Sequence record: MZ234025.1
DNA from: Escherichia phage vB_EcoM-172859UKE1
Reading direction: 5' to 3' (one strand)
Length of the DNA: 64,000 nucleotides
Numbering within the stretch: the first letter of the stretch is position 1; every line of letters starts with the position of its first letter. This document shows positions 1,410 through 57,703 of the stretch, piece after piece. The notes beneath the pieces are model-generated. The model made no database searches. It was not told the DNA's origin and saw nothing but the letters and a program-made list of their open reading frames with translations. Made by a program: the position numbers and the translations under genes.

Positions 1410-1443
1410 GTTTACAAGGTCTATGGTTATGTTATTATAGACC
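1410..1443 (+). promoter_or_regulatory. T4-type early promoter (PeSL-like): -35 GTTTAC, -10 TATTAT enclosed by inverted repeat GGTCTAT/ATAGACC
   Basis: GTTTAC at 1410-1415, 17-bp spacer, TATTAT at 1433-1438; inverted repeat arms 1418-1424 and 1437-1443. Confidence 0.6.
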
Positions 1444-1465
1444 TATCAACTACTGGAGGTAAAAC

Positions 1466-2055: not shown

Positions 2056-3051
2056 ATGAGCATTACATCTGATGCGGTAAAACATGAAATTAACGGTTTA
2101 TGTGCTTCACAGATTAAAGTATGGTTTAAAGACCATAATGATCGCAGGGCACTTAATTATGAACAAATTGCTATCCAAGTTCATCAATTACTGACTAGTA
2201 AATTTGATTTTCATATGCCGTCTGAAATCTATACTAATCTACCGCGAGCGCTTATTAAAGCATGTAAAGGTTACGGAAAATCAATGGCCGATGGAATCTT
2301 CAGCGCGCTGAATAAACTTAACGTTCTGTCGATGATTAACTCTAACAACATCCTGCGTAATCTAGGACGTACTGATTTGTTCGGTCGTGAACAGTGTAAA
2401 ATGCCTTTGAAATGGATTATTGCTCATCTTAACGAGAACCAAACACGTTTTATGGCCGTAACAGCACGTTTACAAATGGGCCTAGATCGTCAGATGAACT
2501 TTAAAACTCATCCACGTTATTCAGGTTCAACTGACTTTTATAAATGTGAGCTTCAAAAGGTTGCAGGCAAAACTGTCTTAGTAGTTCGTGTAACGTTTGA
2601 AGGACGACGTCAAGGATATTTTGACCTAATTGGCTCTGGTCTTAAACATTGCGGATTTATCGACGAAGTTGATATCAAGCGAGACGGCATTGGATACCGT
2701 ATTGGGTATGTTTGTACTCTTAAAGAAGAGATTTCAGGACCAGCACCAGGACTAAAAGACGTTAGATATAAAGACGAGCTCATTGAAGAAATAAAAGAAG
2801 TTGAATATGATATCAACCAAGAAGATGCTCTTAAAGACCTTATTGACGAACTAAACCAAGACGTTATTCCGGTTCAGAAATTTGAATCAAAACATGCTGA
2901 GCAAATCAAATACTTTGAAGCTTTGATTAACGAACTTAATGTAACTATTCAACAGACTGATGATGAAATCTCACGATTAGCAGGCTTAAATGGTAAAAAT
3001 AAAACAGAACGAGCTAATCTTATTCAAGTAGTAAAACTTCTTAAGGAATGA
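2056..3051 (+). CDS. hypothetical protein with C-terminal coiled-coil-like region
   Basis: 331-aa ORF; heptad-like charged/hydrophobic C-terminus. Confidence 0.55.
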   Translation: MSITSDAVKHEINGLCASQIKVWFKDHNDRRALNYEQIAIQVHQLLTSKFDFHMPSEIYTNLPRALIKACKGYGKSMADGIFSALNKLNVLSMINSNNILRNLGRTDLFGREQCKMPLKWIIAHLNENQTRFMAVTARLQMGLDRQMNFKTHPRYSGSTDFYKCELQKVAGKTVLVVRVTFEGRRQGYFDLIGSGLKHCGFIDEVDIKRDGIGYRIGYVCTLKEEISGPAPGLKDVRYKDELIEEIKEVEYDINQEDALKDLIDELNQDVIPVQKFESKHAEQIKYFEALINELNVTIQQTDDEISRLAGLNGKNKTERANLIQVVKLLKE

Positions 3052-3080
3052 TGTACAACCAAGGATGGTTGGAGTATAAT
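3052..3080 (+). promoter_or_regulatory. early promoter (PeSL-like): -35 TGTACA, hairpin CAACC-aaggat-GGTTG, -10 TATAAT
   Basis: TGTACA 3052-3057, TATAAT 3075-3080, 17-bp spacer containing stem-loop. Confidence 0.6.
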
Positions 3081-4046: not shown

Positions 4047-4076
4047 GTTTACAACCAAGGATGGTTGGAGTATAAT
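4047..4076 (+). promoter_or_regulatory. early promoter (PeSL-like): GTTTAC, hairpin CAACC-aaggat-GGTTG, TATAAT
   Basis: GTTTAC 4047-4052, TATAAT 4071-4076. Confidence 0.6.
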
Positions 4077-10930: not shown

Positions 10931-10959
10931 GTTTACATCCTCAATAGATGTGTTAAGAT
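10931..10959 (+). promoter_or_regulatory. early promoter GTTTAC / TAAGAT with flanking inverted repeat TAGATG/CATCTA
   Basis: GTTTAC 10931-10936, 17-bp spacer, -10 at 10954-10959. Confidence 0.5.
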
Positions 10960-10986
10960 TAAACCATCTACTATAGAGGAAAATAA

Positions 10987-12058: not shown

Positions 12059-12099
12059 TATACAACGATAGGAAGACGAATGTTATTATCTTCCTATCG
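12059..12099 (+). promoter_or_regulatory. PeSL-like element: ATACAA, 11-bp inverted repeat CGATAGGAAGA/TCTTCCTATCG with TATTAT in loop
   Basis: Perfect 11-bp stem 12066-12076 / 12089-12099 with -10-like hexamer in loop. Confidence 0.45.
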
Positions 12100-12120
12100 T
12101 CTTAAAATGAGGAAAATATC

Positions 12121-12360: not shown

Positions 12361-12395
12361 TATACAAACTCTTGAGAGATGAGTATAATTCTCTC
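12361..12395 (+). promoter_or_regulatory. early promoter TATACA / TATAAT flanked by inverted repeat GAGAGA/TCTCTC
   Basis: -10 TATAAT 12384-12389; near-identical to promoter at 57631. Confidence 0.55.
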
Positions 12396-13256: not shown

Positions 13257-13299
13257 TGCTTTAAGATAGGTCTCTAAATATTATGATATAATAGACCTA
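13257..13299 (+). promoter_or_regulatory. possible middle/early promoter region upstream of gene 55: MotA-box-like TGCTTTA plus inverted repeat TAGGTCT/AGACCTA around TATAAT
   Basis: TGCTTTA at 13257-13263; TATAAT 13287-13292 inside inverted repeat; spacing imperfect. Confidence 0.35.
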
Positions 13300-13321
13300 T
13301 GAATTGAGCCAAGAGGTACTT

Positions 13322-18670: not shown

Positions 18671-18701
18671 TTTAACACGATGTGGTTATAATGACCACAT
18701 C
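18671..18701 (+). promoter_or_regulatory. possible promoter with TATAAT in loop of inverted repeat GATGTGGT/ACCACATC
   Basis: TTTAAC ... TATAAT 18687-18692; 8-bp inverted repeat arms; -35 spacing short. Confidence 0.3.
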
Positions 18702-22041: not shown

Positions 22042-22045
22042 AGCA

Positions 22046-22066
22046 ATGGGACTTCGGTCCCATTTG
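22046..22066 (+). terminator. stem-loop/weak terminator after regA
   Basis: GGGAC-ttcg-GTCCC hairpin followed by ATTT. Confidence 0.5.
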
Positions 22067-34483: not shown

Positions 34484-34488
34484 TAAAA

Positions 34489-34512
34489 AGGAGACTTCGG
34501 TCTCCTTTCGGG
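34489..34512 (+). terminator. stem-loop/terminator after gene 41
   Basis: GGAGAC-ttcg-GTCTCC hairpin followed by TTT. Confidence 0.55.
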
Positions 34513-34542
34513 GTTTACATCTTCCTCTAGGCATGATATGAT
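34513..34542 (+). promoter_or_regulatory. early promoter GTTTAC / TATGAT
   Basis: GTTTAC 34513-34518, 18-bp spacer, TATGAT 34537-34542. Confidence 0.5.
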
Positions 34543-34571
34543 GAACTTACCCCAACCAAGAGGAAAACATT

Positions 34572-34946
34572 ATGAATATGTCTCAAGCAATTTTTACTGC
34601 AATCACCGAAAACACAACTGTTGAAGTAGTTTCTCCACTGGCAACCTACGTTATTCTTGCTCCTAAAACTATTGTATCTCGTATGGAAAACACAGGCAAA
34701 CGTATCGTACAAATAGTTGGAGCCGGAAATCAAAAACTTGATTATCTACGAACCATCAAAGCTTATGAACATTTCCAACTCGAAAAAGGTTCTCCTATTC
34801 AGGTAGAACTCGTAAATGGTGATATCGTTCGAGCAATGTTCCATCATTTCTATGCATTGAATGACCCATCTAAAGCGGTTCGTTTAATTGCATACGATGC
34901 AAACCAAAACGAAATCAACGCAGATATATCTAAATTACGTTTTTAA
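34572..34946 (+). CDS. hypothetical protein
   Basis: 124-aa ORF after AGAGGAAAACATT RBS. Confidence 0.5.
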   Translation: MNMSQAIFTAITENTTVEVVSPLATYVILAPKTIVSRMENTGKRIVQIVGAGNQKLDYLRTIKAYEHFQLEKGSPIQVELVNGDIVRAMFHHFYALNDPSKAVRLIAYDANQNEINADISKLRF

Positions 34947-34995
34947 GTTTACTTCTCCAGTAGTTGTGTTATTATAGACCTATCAACTACTGGAG
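34947..34995 (+). promoter_or_regulatory. early promoter (PeSL-like) with 12-bp inverted repeat CTCCAGTAGTTG/CAACTACTGGAG enclosing -10
   Basis: GTTTAC 34947-34952, TATTAT 34970-34975; 28 bp (34968-34995) identical to 1431-1458. Confidence 0.6.
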
Positions 34996-35001
34996 AACAA
35001 A

Positions 35002-35319
35002 ATGAAAACCATCGATTGTAAAGCAGAATTTAAGATTTTTTATCACGGTTCAAGTAGTTCAGCTAACATCGAAAACATGCTTTGTCCTCCTGAGGAAACA
35101 GGAGTTCTGTCTGAAACTGGACGTAAGAAAAACTTGGATCGTGTATTCTTTACTGAAGATATAGGTTTAGCAAAGATTTATGCAGGACGAGCAGCACGCT
35201 CTTATGGAGGTGAACCACGTCTCTATCGAGTAATTTCTCCGGTAGATGTAGTTCAAATGAATGATACTAAAGGTGCTACAGTTTATCACGCTGAATGGGC
35301 ATTTTGCGAGGAAATATGA
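35002..35319 (+). CDS. hypothetical protein
   Basis: 105-aa ORF. Confidence 0.5.
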   Translation: MKTIDCKAEFKIFYHGSSSSANIENMLCPPEETGVLSETGRKKNLDRVFFTEDIGLAKIYAGRAARSYGGEPRLYRVISPVDVVQMNDTKGATVYHAEWAFCEEI

Positions 35320-35947: not shown

Positions 35948-35977
35948 GTTTACACCAAAGTTAAAACAAGATACTAT
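35948..35977 (+). promoter_or_regulatory. early promoter GTTTAC / TACTAT
   Basis: GTTTAC 35948-35953, 18-bp spacer, TACTAT 35972-35977. Confidence 0.5.
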
Positions 35978-36259: not shown

Positions 36260-36294
36260 TTTACATTATAGATGGACTATAGTATAGTAGTCCT
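36260..36294 (+). promoter_or_regulatory. early promoter GTTTAC / TATAGT with inverted repeat GGACTA/TAGTCC
   Basis: GTTTAC 36260-36265, TATAGT 36284-36289. Confidence 0.55.
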
Positions 36295-39293: not shown

Positions 39294-39815
39294 ATGGCAC
39301 ACTTTAACGAATGTTCACAACTTATTTCTGGTGTTGATAAAGCAGAAGAAGCTTATTTTAATGCTCTGATTCACGAAGATAAAGACCCACTGCAGGTAAT
39401 GCTTGATATGCAGAAATCTTTACAGGTTCGTCTGGCAAATGACAAGCCTGAACATAACAAACATCCTGATGAATTGGCTACTGCTGGTGATGTTGTTGAT
39501 TGGCTGCGTAATCAGAAAGATTATATTGATGATGAATTCCGTGAACTGCTGACTTCACTTGGTGGTATGAGCAATGGTGAAAAAGCCGCCAGCAGTGTAT
39601 GGAAGCCGTGGAAGGCACAACATGCTGAATATCGTAATCGTCGTATCGATGAACTGTCTCCTGAAGACCAGCTTGAAATTAAATTTGAGATGATTGATAT
39701 TCTGCACTTTGTTCTGAACATGTTCCAAGGTCTTGGGCTTTCTGCTGAAGAAATCTTTAAACTTTACTACTTGAAAAACCAACACAACTTTGAACGCCAG
39801 GATAACGGTTACTAA
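39294..39815 (+). CDS. 56: dCTP pyrophosphatase gp56 (MazG-like)
   Basis: MAHFNECSQLISGVDKAEEAYF...DPLQVMLDMQKSLQVRLAN closely matches T4 gp56; start at first ATG. Confidence 0.9.
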   Translation: MAHFNECSQLISGVDKAEEAYFNALIHEDKDPLQVMLDMQKSLQVRLANDKPEHNKHPDELATAGDVVDWLRNQKDYIDDEFRELLTSLGGMSNGEKAASSVWKPWKAQHAEYRNRRIDELSPEDQLEIKFEMIDILHFVLNMFQGLGLSAEEIFKLYYLKNQHNFERQDNGY

Positions 39816-39821
39816 TTAAGT

Positions 39822-40104: not shown

Positions 40105-40136
40105 AAGGAATCCTTCGGGATTCCTTTTTTTTTTTG
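40105..40136 (+). terminator. rho-independent terminator
   Basis: AGGAATCC-ttcg-GGATTCCT hairpin followed by 11 T. Confidence 0.85.
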
Positions 40137-41453: not shown

Positions 41454-41614
41454 AAGAGAAATTGAAAGAGAAATTCTTACTAGAAATCAAGGAAAAAGAC
41501 TTTGAGACATGGTATCGAATGGTGAAAGGGCTGACATTGCTTTTTAAAGCATCGTTATTCATGTTAGAACAACCTGGTCCTGATGGGCCTTTAGTAGGAA
41601 AGCTTAAAAAGTAG
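41450..41614 (+). CDS. hypothetical protein
   Basis: 54-aa ORF, ATGA-coupled. Confidence 0.3.
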   Translation: MKEKLKEKFLLEIKEKDFETWYRMVKGLTLLFKASLFMLEQPGPDGPLVGKLKK

Positions 41615-41642
41615 TTTACATTCCCTCCTCTCGTGTTATGAT
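41614..41642 (+). promoter_or_regulatory. early promoter GTTTAC / TATGAT
   Basis: GTTTAC 41614-41619, 17-bp spacer, TATGAT 41637-41642. Confidence 0.5.
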
Positions 41643-41669
41643 AGGCTTATCTTTAAATGGAGGTCTATC

Positions 41670-42251
41670 ATGACATGTCAATCTGAACTTCAAGAACGCG
41701 AATACCTAACAAATCTGATTGATAGCAAATTCACCCGCCAAGAACAAAACATTCTCTGGGCCTGCACCGATTCTAAGGAAGACCCGGATTTCCACTATGA
41801 ATTAGACCATCTTGTTCGTAAGCATATGACTTCTACAGTGCCAGTAGAACTCTACCGTGGTGTAACTCCAGAAGAAGTAGAACGTCTTTCCCTTCTTTCT
41901 GTGGGATGCCATTGGTCTCCTGGACGAGTAACATCGTTCACAACTGATTTCAGTACAGCTCGTCAATTCTCCGGGAGATGGGAATATCAGACGTACACTA
42001 TTCTTAGTCTCAGGAATGCTCCATTCATTTTTGATTACTACCAAAACATGGTTAACATTGTACTTGCCGGAAAGAACCCTAAGCATGTTATGGAAGAAAC
42101 GCGTGTTGACGTCCTAGATATGATTGAATCTGAACAAGAATACATGGTCTCAGGTATCTCTAGATTTGAGATTGTGGAAATTGAAGAGTTAGAGTATGAC
42201 CCTTTGTCTCGAGTATACAAAATCATTCACTTAAAGATGTTGAATTTTTAG
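41670..42251 (+). CDS. mono-ADP-ribosyltransferase (ModA/ModB-like)
   Basis: 193 aa; R-S-E-type motif set: LYRGV, SFTTDFSTARQF, EQEYMV; locus matches T4 modA/modB. Confidence 0.65.
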   Translation: MTCQSELQEREYLTNLIDSKFTRQEQNILWACTDSKEDPDFHYELDHLVRKHMTSTVPVELYRGVTPEEVERLSLLSVGCHWSPGRVTSFTTDFSTARQFSGRWEYQTYTILSLRNAPFIFDYYQNMVNIVLAGKNPKHVMEETRVDVLDMIESEQEYMVSGISRFEIVEIEELEYDPLSRVYKIIHLKMLNF

Positions 42252-42252
42252 T

Positions 42253-42280
42253 GTACAAACTCTACCTACGATGATACTAT
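42253..42280 (+). promoter_or_regulatory. early promoter TGTACA / TACTAT
   Basis: TGTACA 42253-42258, 16-bp spacer, TACTAT 42275-42280. Confidence 0.5.
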
Positions 42281-46132: not shown

Positions 46133-46162
46133 GTTTACAACCAAGGACGGTTGGAGTATAAT
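46133..46162 (+). promoter_or_regulatory. early promoter (PeSL-like) GTTTAC, hairpin CAACC-aaggac-GGTTG, TATAAT
   Basis: GTTTAC 46133-46138, TATAAT 46157-46162. Confidence 0.6.
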
Positions 46163-46687: not shown

Positions 46688-46690
46688 TGT

Positions 46691-46719
46691 TGTACATCCA
46701 AGGATGGATGGAGTATAAT
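46691..46719 (+). promoter_or_regulatory. early promoter (PeSL-like) TGTACA, hairpin CATCC-aaggat-GGATG, TATAAT
   Basis: TGTACA 46691-46696, TATAAT 46714-46719. Confidence 0.6.
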
Positions 46720-47637: not shown

Positions 47638-47666
47638 GTTTACTTCTCCTCCGGTTTTGATATTAT
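47638..47666 (+). promoter_or_regulatory. early promoter GTTTAC / TATTAT
   Basis: GTTTAC 47638-47643, 17-bp spacer, TATTAT 47661-47666. Confidence 0.55.
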
Positions 47667-47692
47667 AACCATATCAACCAGAGGAGAATAAT

Positions 47693-48217
47693 ATGTTAGT
47701 TTACCGCGTAGAACGTAGTTTTTGTACTCAACGTGAATCATTACCAGGAATTGCTATCGAAGATGGTAAAGCCGTCAGAATTTGGGAAACCTCTTGGAAT
47801 AAAGAACCTCGTTCGCCGTATGGTTGGTCGGGCACCGACAACTCTGAAGAAACATGGGAGTTCCTTGATAAGCATGGAATACTCTCAGGTAACTTCTACC
47901 ATCACGGCGACAACTATAATGTCCCTAATCGTCCTACAGTAAATGAAGACAAACTCCTTGAACAAAATATCTTAAGATACTATAGAATTGAGCACACATT
48001 TGAATTGAGTGAAGATTGGGCTCAAGGGTTCTATTTTGGATTTGAAAGTGTTGACGCGGTTTATGCATGGTTTGATGACCAGGTGGATGTTGAACTCTTG
48101 AAAGCTAAAGGATACTACATCGCGGTCTATGAAGCACCTGATTTCATCCTCGGAAGTTGTCAATTAATGTTTAGACGTTCATTGGCAGAACAAGTTGATT
48201 TTATTTTGCTAAAATGA
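47693..48217 (+). CDS. hypothetical protein
   Basis: 174-aa ORF after AGAGGAGAATAAT RBS. Confidence 0.5.
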   Translation: MLVYRVERSFCTQRESLPGIAIEDGKAVRIWETSWNKEPRSPYGWSGTDNSEETWEFLDKHGILSGNFYHHGDNYNVPNRPTVNEDKLLEQNILRYYRIEHTFELSEDWAQGFYFGFESVDAVYAWFDDQVDVELLKAKGYYIAVYEAPDFILGSCQLMFRRSLAEQVDFILLK

Positions 48218-48251
48218 TGTACAACAACTATGGTCTATGATACTATAGACC
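48218..48251 (+). promoter_or_regulatory. early promoter TGTACA / TACTAT within inverted repeat GGTCTAT/ATAGACC
   Basis: TGTACA 48218-48223, 17-bp spacer, TACTAT 48241-48246. Confidence 0.55.
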
Positions 48252-49096: not shown

Positions 49097-49522
49097 ATGG
49101 CTTTTAAAGGTTTTGAAGTTGGTAAGAAATATCGTATTATCAAAGGACAGGAAGATAATTTCTTGAGAATTCTTAATACGACTGGTAAACGTCTTAATAC
49201 TAATCTGCATACTACTTTATTGTCCAAAGATTTTATTGTGGAAGAGATGATTGGTTACGGCGTTTCTGTGATTGCTGTAGAAGCCGTAGGCGATTATGGC
49301 CGAACTATTCATAGTATGCAAGGTGATATTCTGCTTTATGGTGCAGAATTTAAATTCTTTGAAGAAGTTCCGGAACCAGATACAGCTGTCGATTTCAAAA
49401 AAGGCTCTATAGAATTTGTTGATGGTTCGGTGATCGTATCAGGCGATGTGGTCATTACAGTTAAAAGTGAACAAGGGCGTTTGGCTGCAATTGATGCACT
49501 TCAGAAAATTAAATTTAAATAA
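49097..49522 (+). CDS. hypothetical protein
   Basis: 141-aa ORF ending at a terminator. Confidence 0.5.
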   Translation: MAFKGFEVGKKYRIIKGQEDNFLRILNTTGKRLNTNLHTTLLSKDFIVEEMIGYGVSVIAVEAVGDYGRTIHSMQGDILLYGAEFKFFEEVPEPDTAVDFKKGSIEFVDGSVIVSGDVVITVKSEQGRLAAIDALQKIKFK

Positions 49523-49540
49523 GGGCTTCGGCCCTTTTTG
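49521..49540 (+). terminator. rho-independent terminator
   Basis: GGGC-ttcg-GCCC hairpin followed by TTTTT. Confidence 0.7.
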
Positions 49541-52546: not shown

Positions 52547-52638
52547 ATCCTGAATAGCCTGAGGCACTATTACACATAAGATGATAAATTATATGGTCTT
52601 TAGTAATAGTGCCCTAGGAATCTACTGAAGAGAATATT

Positions 52639-52839
52639 ATGAGAACATATAACGTGGACTTGGAACTTTTTGATAAAGCAGTGCTCCGGGAATTCCGGCT
52701 TATCCAAAGATTTTTTGATATCGAGTCAGCAGAGTCCTTTAAAGAACGCTTTAAAGAAATTAGATATAAAATACAAACCGATACAGCTACTAAAGAAGAA
52801 CTTCTTGAAGTAGCAGAAATTTTTAAACGTAACTTGTGA
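52639..52839 (+). CDS. hypothetical protein (rIIA.1 position)
   Basis: 66-aa ORF immediately upstream of rIIA. Confidence 0.45.
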   Translation: MRTYNVDLELFDKAVLREFRLIQRFFDIESAESFKERFKEIRYKIQTDTATKEELLEVAEIFKRNL

Positions 52840-56027: not shown

Positions 56028-56050
56028 GGGGACTTCGGTCCCCTTTTTTC
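56028..56050 (+). terminator. rho-independent terminator
   Basis: GGGGAC-ttcg-GTCCCC hairpin followed by TTTTTT. Confidence 0.8.
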
Positions 56051-56856: not shown

Positions 56857-56892
56857 GTTTACAACTAAGTAGGACTATGATATAGTAGTCCT
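56857..56892 (+). promoter_or_regulatory. early promoter GTTTAC / TATAGT within inverted repeat AGGACTA/TAGTCCT
   Basis: GTTTAC 56857-56862, 18-bp spacer, TATAGT 56881-56886. Confidence 0.55.
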
Positions 56893-56912
56893 ATCTAAAA
56901 GAGGATAACATT

Positions 56913-57368: not shown

Positions 57369-57406
57369 GTTTACATCAAGGTAGGATTATGGTATAGTAG
57401 TCCTAC
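57369..57406 (+). promoter_or_regulatory. early promoter GTTTAC / TATAGT within inverted repeat GTAGGA/TCCTAC
   Basis: GTTTAC 57369-57374, 18-bp spacer, TATAGT 57393-57398. Confidence 0.55.
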
Positions 57407-57426
57407 TGAAACATGAGGAACACAAA

Positions 57427-57630: not shown

Positions 57631-57665
57631 TGTACAAACTCTTGAGAGCAGAGTATAATGCTCTC
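57631..57665 (+). promoter_or_regulatory. early promoter TGTACA / TATAAT flanked by inverted repeat GAGAGC/GCTCTC
   Basis: TGTACA 57631-57636, 17-bp spacer, TATAAT 57654-57659. Confidence 0.55.
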
Positions 57666-57703
57666 ATGGATTACAAAAACATTAATCAATTGAGGAAATT
57701 AGC

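Follow-up and report, generated by a model that had tools for sequence, protein, structure and literature searches.

Covarying hairpin arms in early promoter cassettes of the RB69-like phage vB_EcoM-172859UKE1 and their possible role as boundary structures in read-through RNA

In this study, we analysed the inverted repeats that surround early promoters in a 64,000-nucleotide stretch of Escherichia phage vB_EcoM-172859UKE1 (sequence record MZ234025.1; the whole stretch is hereafter called the window), with emphasis on the promoter of the ORF040c-dmd operon at 34947-34975, designated P34947. The hairpin arms at these promoters covary, and the promoters appear to be organised as promoter-early-stem-loop (PeSL) cassettes. 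We further propose, as a reading that may equally well prove right or wrong, that the stems of these PeSL-type cassettes form a boundary structure found only in RNA reading through from the upstream transcription unit, and that at P34947 this structure masks the ribosome-binding site (RBS) or couples it to upstream translation.

The hairpin at P34947 and the anatomy of the cassettes

P34947 is an early promoter of the sigma-70 type (GTTTAC-N17-TATTAT) located after gene 41, where it separates an RB69ORF041c homologue (34572-34946) from an RB69ORF040c homologue (35002-35319). The -35 hexamer is directly adjoined by the ORF041c stop (TAA, 34944-34946), and ORF040c starts with the ATG at 35002. 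The stem comprises 14 bp and encloses a 17-nt loop that holds TATTAT; among perfect inverted repeats whose loop does not exceed 30 nt, it is the longest in the 64 kb. Its arms are listed in Table 1, and the predicted transcription start (34982) falls between them. When the region was folded as read-through RNA, an energy of -21.7 kcal/mol was obtained (z -5.5) with the Shine-Dalgarno (SD) sequence paired. When the predicted transcript of P34947 itself (34982-35030) was folded, the energy was -3.8 kcal/mol (z -0.25) and the SD was free. The stem is followed by CAAAAUGA, with the tail CAAAATGA, and was not among the results of a terminator scan of the window. A related arrangement was found at the next promoter upstream, P34513, where the spacer arm TTCCTCTAGG (34522-34531) pairs, with one mismatch, with CCAAGAGGAA (34556-34565), a segment that includes the SD of ORF041c.

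The cassettes share a common layout, namely an upstream stop codon, an A/T-rich stretch, GTTTAC, a spacer of 17-18 nt, TAnnnT, a ctATC start, a short leader that often reads ATCAACTAC, the SD, and ATG. Together these parts fill the whole gap of 55-65 nt between two early genes. In 16 of the 25 window promoters, the upstream stop either overlaps the -35 hexamer or leaves 0-6 nt in front of it, so that promoter and 5' untranslated region (UTR) form the entire intergenic region. Direct abutment or sharing of a base between stop and -35 hexamer (e.g., TAG and TTTAC) is seen, for example, at 34944-34952, 41612-41619, 42249-42256, and 48215-48222. A+T content in the 25 nt upstream of the -35 hexamer is 75%, compared with 63% window-wide, and A accounts for 41% of the bases at -48 to -37. 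The ctATC motif is conserved after the -10 hexamer in nearly all promoters, and its A, 7 nt downstream, was taken as the predicted +1; the RefSeq record of T4 carries no promoter or start-site annotation.

In about 40-45% of the cassettes, the spacer is paired with a downstream segment, which may be the tail of the -10 hexamer plus discriminator, the leader plus SD, or the SD plus AUG. The geometry of these pairings was examined in 48 stems scoring at least 7. The 5' arm lies entirely upstream of the predicted +1 in 43 of the 48. Of the 3' arms, 14 extend no further than +6, 6 stop within the leader short of the SD, and about 20 (classes B and D) extend into the SD or AUG; in 4 stems, both arms lie upstream of the end of the -10 hexamer. 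A T-rich tail follows the stem in 3 of the 48.

Enrichment and covariation of the hairpin arms

To avoid circularity, promoters were picked blind to hairpins. A position weight matrix (PWM) scan of both strands of the window identified 25 promoters, every one of them on the plus strand. For comparison, 80 related loci were retrieved, and across all sources the PWM called 218 promoters on the plus strand and 1 on the minus strand; the comparison set comprised 107 non-redundant promoter clusters from 70 sources. In the window, 9 of 26 consensus-defined promoters folded at z < -2 relative to dinucleotide shuffles, and 10% of perfect stems of at least 8 bp fell within promoter intervals, which span 2.6% of the sequence (p=0.008). 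Among 73 non-redundant promoters, the mean folding z was -1.67, and 41% were below -2 (p=9e-10). As the first-pass annotation had anticipated, a scan against random windows placed inverted repeats preferentially at early promoters: an ungapped Watson-Crick repeat score of at least 7 was reached by 41% of the 107 promoters and by 10.5% of random windows, and a score of at least 10 by 10% and 0.4%, respectively.

We then asked how the two arms relate to each other. Since stems occur in three or more registers with respect to the -10 hexamer, a fixed-register covariation test was given up in favour of a register-free chimera test. Spacers scored 5.85 against their own downstream part and 4.68 against those of other promoters (z=11.3); a complementarity score of at least 9 was found in 14% of real promoters and in 0.65% of chimeras. 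Moreover, swapping spacers among window promoters weakened folding from -8.50 to -6.65 kcal/mol (p=3e-4). Compensatory changes were also identified. The paralogous sites at 12374 and 57644 carry GAGAGA/TCTCTC and GAGAGC/GCTCTC, respectively, and a family of spacer mini-hairpins carries AACCA/TGGTT or ATCCA/TGGAT. Between the Aeromonas 44RR-like loci L035 and L038, three consecutive pairs differ in a compensatory manner (GCAGG/CCTGC versus GTGAG/CTCAC); the promoters concerned (L035 11346-11445 and L038 2573-2672) are orthologous and have SD-reaching stems of 14-16 bp.

The arms also differ at the same position across lineages. Upstream of ORF040c orthologues the promoter is kept and the hairpin changes: JS98-like phages have short TCTCC/GGAGA and TAGG/CCTA pairings, L012-13 have ATCTCC/GGAGAT, and Aeromonas 44RR-like phages have GGGACTAT/ATAGTCCC around the -10 hexamer. 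Likewise, the nrdC.8 promoter carries GGTCTAT/ATAGACC in the window and RB69, TTCCTC/GAGGAA in L074-78, and the SD-masking pair CTCCAGTAG/CTACTGGAG in JS98-like phages. In T4, which is without ORF040c and ORF041c, a 15-bp stem (CTGACAAGACTAT/ATAGTAGTCTTGTCGG) surrounds TATAGT at the 41-dmd junction. The T4 41-dmd gap (L084, NC_000866, 20554-20611, complement) contains a single early promoter, whose -35 hexamer overlaps the stop of gene 41 (TAGTTTAC). These combined data show that the hairpin arms truly covary within promoters, and they bear out the earlier suggestion that selection acts on the hairpin itself: arms are matched within each promoter, changes are compensatory, and lineages use different arms at one position.

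The hairpins could also be functionless, having arisen by templated (quasi-palindrome) mutation and copying between cassettes and persisting under weak constraint on spacer and leader. In T4, quasi-palindrome correction is known as a source of mutations. Compared with its JS98-like orthologue, the P34947 stem differs by several clustered changes and an AC insertion, as from a single copying event and not from selection in steps; in addition, stem geometry is highly variable and about half of the promoters work without a hairpin. We nonetheless consider such an origin very unlikely, given the 4- to 25-fold enrichment over random windows and chimeras, the independent recurrence of stems with unrelated arms in Mosigvirus, JS98-like, T4, and Aeromonas 44RR-like phages, the compensatory substitutions in orthologues, and the bias of stem interruptions toward G:T (see below).

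The link between hairpins and promoters that the first-pass annotation had drawn stood as enrichment; hairpins are neither universal among early promoters nor confined to them. Roughly one early promoter in two lacks a hairpin (e.g., those at 35972, 59960, 35542, and 40169). Perfect repeats of 7-8 bp in the window are mostly due to chance (49 observed versus 34 +/- 6 in shuffles). Intergenic gaps free of early promoters are structured too, with a mean z of -1.37 versus -1.75 at promoters; the structured ones include true terminators and two middle-promoter-like sites. These two sites (18679-18701 and 13266-13300) consist of a MotA-box-like gCTTTAa, about 12 nt, and then TATAAT, with the -10 hexamer inside an 8-bp perfect inverted repeat (GATGTGGT/ACCACATC and ATAGGTCT/AGACCTAT).

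The same arrangement at middle-promoter-like sites, together with the position of the -10 or extended -10 at the centre of the loop in the most frequent geometry, would be expected if the inverted repeat tuned the promoter, either through the conformation or melting of the spacer or by presenting the -10 hexamer to sigma-70 in a single-stranded loop. We regard this as highly improbable: stem position varies (some stems lie within the spacer, others extend to the SD, and others begin at the -10 hexamer), the last bases of the -10 hexamer, including -7T, are inside the stem in the common geometry, and many promoters with a strong consensus have no repeat.

Ten inverted repeats around early -10 hexamers had been listed by the first-pass annotation. 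All ten are present with perfectly complementary arms, seven exactly where they had been placed and three shifted by 1 nt (corrected to 36274, 57644, and 12374); their folding energies range from -5.6 to -20.5 kcal/mol. Four further promoters (3051-3080, 4047-4076, 46133-46162, and 46690-46719) share a near-identical core, GTTTAC-AACCAAGGATGGTTGGAG-TATAAT, with a 5-bp mini-hairpin in the spacer; at 46690 the mini-hairpin reads ATCCA/TGGAT, a compensatory variant. The coordinates of the features are given in Table 1.

Table 1. Promoter, hairpin, repeat, gene, and terminator features in the window
Position	Strand	Feature	Basis or remark
34947..34952	+	-35 hexamer GTTTAC of P34947, early promoter of the ORF040c-dmd operon	Consensus and PWM scans
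34953..34966	+	5' arm TTCTCCAGTAGTTG, within the 17-nt spacer; carries anti-SD TTCTCC	Perfect 14-bp inverted repeat; fold
34970..34975	+	-10 hexamer TATTAT, in hairpin loop	Consensus and PWM scans, fold
34982	+	Predicted transcription start, A of conserved ctATC, 7 nt past -10	Conserved ATC and sigma-70 geometry (inferred)
34984..34997	+	3' arm CAACTACTGGAGAA in 5' UTR; includes SD GGAG (34992-34995)	Inverted repeat, fold
34968..34995	+	28-mer copy 2: -10, discriminator, start, ATCAACTAC leader, SD	Exact repeat
1410..1458	+	Early promoter of nrdC.8 homologue (GTTTAC 1410-1415, TATTAT 1433-1438); 1431-1458 is 28-mer copy 1	Scan, fold
34513..34565	+	Early promoter P34513 (GTTTAC 34513-34518, TATGAT 34537-34542)	Consensus scan, fold
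47638..47688	+	Early promoter with SD-burying hairpin TTCTCCTCCGGTT (47644-47656) / AACCAGAGGAGAA (47676-47688)	Fold z -5.5
10931..10980	+	Early promoter with outer stem TCCTCAATAG (10938-10947) / CTATAGAGGA (10971-10980, including SD); inner TAGATG/CATCTA	Fold
41634..41675	+	P41614: -10 region TGTTATGATAG pairs with CTATCATGACA spanning the start codon	Fold
36274..36293	+	Hairpin GGACTA/TAGTCC around TATAGT, promoter of sp homologue	Inverted repeat, fold
56870..56893	+	Hairpin TAGGACTA/TAGTCCTA around TATAGT	Inverted repeat, fold
57380..57407	+	Stem of GGTAGGATTAT/ATAGTAGTCCTACT type, one G-U pair	Inverted repeat, fold
57643..57666	+	Hairpin TGAGAGCA/TGCTCTCA around TATAAT; paralogue of the 12374 site with compensatory change	Inverted repeat
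12374..12395	+	Hairpin GAGAGA/TCTCTC around TATAAT	Inverted repeat
12065..12100	+	12-bp hairpin ACGATAGGAAGA/TCTTCCTATCGT around TATTAT; weak -35, site not called by PWM	Inverted repeat
48232..48251	+	Hairpin GGTCTAT/ATAGACC overlapping TACTAT	Inverted repeat
4047..4076	+	Spacer mini-hairpin AACCAaggaTGGTT between -35 and -10, one of four copies	Scan, fold
34572..34946	+	ORF041c homologue, 124 aa, PHROG 10668	Function-unassigned PHROG; variable module between two promoter cassettes
35002..35319	+	ORF040c homologue, 105 aa, PHROG 2110	Function-unassigned PHROG; stop codon overlaps dmd start
34487..34508	+	Terminator-type hairpin with UUCG tetraloop	After gene 41, just 5' of P34513; annotated in PhAPEC2

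Level of action of the stems

A stem whose 5' arm lies upstream of the start of its own promoter cannot exist in the RNA of that promoter; it must therefore act in read-through RNA or in DNA. Of these two, RNA reading through from upstream is the likely level, which the first-pass annotation had not considered. With regard to P34947, no terminator lies between it and P34513, and the ORF041c stop abuts its -35 hexamer, so that polymerases starting at P34513 must read through.

According to the proposed mechanism, the otherwise unconstrained spacer would co-evolve to pair with a downstream segment, and the stem would form only in sense-strand RNA made by polymerases of the upstream unit, as an intercistronic boundary structure. 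In RNA from P34513 and ORF041c, the 14-bp stem (about -21 kcal/mol) would bury the SD GGAG of ORF040c-dmd, and this read-through RNA would be poorly translated, while RNA started at about 34982 would have a free SD. Alternatively, a ribosome terminating at the ORF041c TAA might unzip the outer TTCTCC/GGAGAA pairs and allow translation; because that stop is 6 nt from these pairs, coupling is as plausible as plain silencing. In the longer transcript, the SD and/or AUG is paired not only at P34947 but also at the promoters at 47638, 10931, 34513, and 41614.

Mismatches in the interior of the stems were used to examine strand preference. G:T mismatches outnumbered A:C by 21 to 2 (91% G:T), an excess that favours the plus strand. 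The corresponding values were 74% in chimeras and 57% in random windows; what had seemed a very strong signal against a null of 50% or 57% shrank to p=0.037 against the composition-matched chimeras.

Several observations weigh against the proposal of a read-through boundary structure that masks or couples the RBS. Given that composition-matched chimeras already reach 74% G:T, the excess is modest and is compatible with a hairpin in single-stranded DNA of the plus strand. Accessibility from SD to AUG in read-through RNA was 0.46, versus 0.49 with shuffled upstream sequence (p=0.2), and the number of SD/AUG bases paired upstream was 2.44 in real promoters and 2.47 in chimeras. About 20 of the 48 stems do not extend beyond the leader and stay short of SD and AUG, and 4 more lie wholly upstream. 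In RB69, the stem corresponding to that at P34947 has one mismatch near the loop end and a spacer shorter by 1 nt. Strong stems occur in 11% of cases with a terminator upstream and in 30% otherwise, a difference that is not significant (p=0.18). Finally, the start sites were predicted from sequence and sigma-70 geometry.

With both accessibility and pairing controls negative, masking of SD or AUG was rejected as a general selected function and was kept for P34947 and a subset of promoters. The selected property appears to be a stable stem somewhere between the -35 hexamer and the start codon, with SD occlusion as one outcome, of which P34947 is a case. Anti-SD motifs occur in 22 of the 107 spacers (versus 8.1 +/- 2.4), an enrichment that is not decisive since SD-like motifs occur at a similar rate (20 of 107).

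A more tentative possibility, which we consider doubtful, is that the subset of promoter hairpins that includes 34953-34997 serves as translational gates between adjacent early units, set by where a transcript originates. The stem would then open in read-through RNA only by coupling to a ribosome that terminates a few nt upstream, and would be open in RNA from the gene's own promoter; each cassette would insulate translation as well as transcription. A swap of the spacer arm could turn a gene from gated to ungated, as the nrdC.8 promoter may illustrate with a stem that masks the SD in JS98-like phages and does not do so here.

The function given by the PeSL authors is a different one, in which the stems are transcription terminators or attenuators of the upstream unit that insulate each cassette. 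When an RB49 PeSL stem was placed between a promoter and lacZ, expression was cut as strongly as by rrnB T1 (PMC2839356); such a reporter drop could also reflect effects on RNA stability. The stems analysed here directly follow upstream stop codons, exist only in read-through RNA, and are rarer after a canonical terminator (by the non-significant margin given above), all of which termination would accommodate. However, with T-rich tails after only 3 of the 48 stems, and with the P34947 stem running into CAAAAUGA, they are not intrinsic (Rho-independent) terminators by sequence, and this identity was rejected. The genuine terminators of the window are separate structures that are GC-rich and have UUCG loops and T runs (34487-34508, 40105-40126, 49521-49536, and 56028-56043), whereas the stems are AT-rich, unlike the polyG/polyC stems of RB49. 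We therefore judge termination or attenuation to be unlikely as the function of the stems. A UUCG terminator-type hairpin is also present at 22045-22064, and several of these hairpins stand immediately 5' of the -35 hexamer of an early promoter.

Exchange between cassettes and relation to known PeSLs

The first-pass annotation had claimed that 1431-1458 is identical to 34968-34995. The identity is exact: this 28-mer (GTTATTATAGACCTATCAACTACTGGAG) occurs in just these two copies, no third site was found in the window even with up to 3 mismatches, and shuffles gave an expectation of 0 matches. The first copy belongs to the promoter of the nrdC.8 homologue, whose hairpin (AGGTCTAT, 1417-1424, with ATAGACCT, 1437-1444) stops short of +1. 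Either of two 3' arms can be drawn from the 28-bp core, with ATAGACC serving at 1410 and CAACTACTGGAG at 34947, and the spacer arms that pair with them differ. P34947 is a mosaic. Its flanks match ORF040c orthologues, and its core, CTCCAGTAG...TATTATAGACCTATCAACTACTGGAG, matches the nrdC.8-type cassette (alignment A1), with which it shares CTCCAGTAG, TATTAT, and an AC that is absent from JS98-like ORF040c promoters. The spacer of the window promoter at 1410, in turn, resembles that of another cassette (L004:10920), and the window also contains repeated cassette families with near-identical 30-bp cores. The 28-bp core is best read as having been kept identical by exchange or gene conversion between dispersed cassettes, in a direction that these data do not polarise.

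Gene order after gene 41 was compared among the related phages. T4 has 41-promoter-dmd; L016-19 have 41-terminator-hybrid promoter-ORF040c; the window and RB69 have 41-terminator-promoter-ORF041c-promoter-ORF040c-dmd. The ORF041c module is absent from T4, L004-L013, and L016-L019, with a hybrid promoter left at the junction. As judged from these sequences, the nested series fits the PeSL cassette model.

A role of the cassettes in modular shuffling, as the first-pass annotation had suggested, agrees with the ORF041c module and the mosaic P34947. It was not borne out by three other indels, and indels bounded by cassettes were dropped as a rule because only one of the four examined (ORF041c) fits. 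The three others are the loss of gene 61.4, a 438-bp in-frame segment, and a 413-bp insert that a close relative carries between gene 56 and soc. JS09, RB69, and T4 have gene 61.4, which the window lacks at about 35495, between dmd and P35518; its loss between short GATTTC direct repeats suggests a microhomology-mediated deletion rather than cassette recombination. The 438-bp segment (41689-42126) is part of a 193-aa open reading frame (ORF; 41670-42248) and is absent from the 97%-identical contig L003, with a 9-nt overlap at the junction. The 413-bp insert (L002 4996-5410 versus window 39778-39821) contains two small ORFs (55 and 74 aa) and has no early-promoter cassette at its edges.

These data also bear on whether the inverted repeats act in DNA, where hairpins or cruciforms would stimulate breakage, template switching, and recombination between cassettes and thereby drive modular shuffling, the hairpin being selected or kept for this purpose. 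The mosaic promoters, the identical core in two cassettes 33.5 kb apart, and the ORF041c module between two cassettes, with its hybrid junction promoter in other phages, are all compatible with such a role. In addition, the window phage encodes endonuclease VII, which cleaves branched DNA, and mini-circle crossovers in RB49/phi1 were mapped within PeSLs, one of them in a loop (PMC2839356). However, homologous exchange needs only shared promoter sequence and no hairpin, three of the four indels examined are not at cassettes, and arm positions are explained by where promoter sequence can vary. Stems tolerate G:T and almost never A:C, and G:T would weaken the partner hairpin of a cruciform. An action in DNA therefore seems decidedly unlikely to us.

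By its sequence, the window phage is an RB69-like (Mosigvirus) phage of the T-even type. The window corresponds to the Mosigvirus early region from nrdC.11 through gene 39, with early genes on the plus strand (mapped on PhAPEC2 and RB69); a stretch of 2.5 kb around P34947 shares 98% identity with PhAPEC2, JS09, and many other Mosigvirus phages, and the identity of the window to RB69, as to PhAPEC2 and JS09, is 98%. No Pfam match was obtained for the ORF040c or ORF041c homologues, and an Rfam 15 scan of the entire window yielded no family at the gathering score. Protein searches from 47693 and 57704 matched near-identical loci only and added little. An 11-bp perfect inverted repeat (GGCACTATTAC/GTAATAGTGCC, 29-nt loop) was noted at 52563-52613, 5' of a 66-aa ORF starting at 52639; this gap folds at about -28 kcal/mol (z -4.8) and contains no early promoter by PWM.

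PeSLs were defined as an early promoter with AT-rich upstream DNA, bounded by an upstream stop and a downstream SD/ATG, and a stem-loop of five positional subclasses that lies mostly between the -35 and -10 hexamers or overlaps the -10 hexamer (PMC2839356). In T-even phages, elements of this kind were first seen by Repoila et al. 1994 at the IP locus, according to the account in PMC2839356, as AT-rich stems of variable size on T4 early promoters. The T-even PeSLs of PST/T4 have TTTACW N17 TAYWAT promoters and AT-rich variable AGNA-loop-TCNT stems (Comeau 2014, PMC4122927). The match to PeSLs made by the first-pass annotation was sound in promoter type, AT-rich upstream DNA, stem position, stop/SD/ATG bounds, and repeated motif. 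Taken together, the sequence comparisons support the window cassettes as a new example, in the Mosigvirus lineage, of the PeSL cassettes already described.

The likeness to the individual systems is partial. Like the cassettes of the window, the PeSLs of RB49/phi1 are composite intergenic elements in many copies that adjoin small unknown ORFs, exchange between copies, and contain G-T pairs in their stems (Arbiol et al. 2010, PMC2839356). RB49, however, has TTGACA-type promoters and polyG/polyC-rich stems, whereas GTTTAC -35 hexamers and AT-rich stems that end without a U-tract are found here. The T-even PeSLs share the promoter consensus, and the AGNA-loop-TCNT form agrees with the AGGAC...GTCCT and AGACC-type arms of the window; according to the 2014 figure legend, their stems lie just upstream of the promoter (PMC4122927), whereas the stems here enclose the -10 hexamer. 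Translation is not discussed in the PeSL papers (the word is absent from PMC2839356), while about 20 of the 48 stems here include the SD or AUG. Mosigvirus was not analysed in the T-even PeSL papers, and long SD-burying stems and two 5' arms on one 28-bp core are undescribed there. The two MotA-box-like sites resemble the PmSLs of Vibrio phage nt-1 (PMC4122927), their middle-promoter status being putative.

Two other known systems can be compared with these stems. Rho-independent terminators likewise place a stem-loop directly after the stop codon, but they are GC-rich with a U-tract; the stems here are AT-rich, end without a U-tract, and have loops of 6-17 nt that hold the -10 hexamer. In T4, the translation initiation regions of e, soc, 49, and I-TevI are occluded by hairpins, and a promoter lies inside the DNA encoding the 5' strand (PMC3014915). 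As predicted for P34947, the SD/AUG is in a helix of the long transcript and the short transcript escapes it. In those genes, however, the internal promoter is late (gp55) and provides an early-off/late-on switch, whereas here the internal P34947 (GTTTAC/TATTAT) and the promoter upstream of it are, by sequence, both early and of the sigma-70 type.

The present analysis extends PeSL-type cassettes to the RB69/Mosigvirus group, in which they are an expected feature, and adds quantitative support that was absent from the original descriptions: enrichment, arm covariation relative to composition-matched chimeras, and the geometry of arms and start sites. The stem data argue against classical termination as the mechanism. 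If true, RBS masking specific to read-through RNA would carry the logic of T4 lysozyme, soc, and gene 49 into the early period, and would help to explain how densely packed, overlapping early transcription units are expressed independently. Such knowledge would also be of use in annotating and engineering T4-like therapeutic phages.

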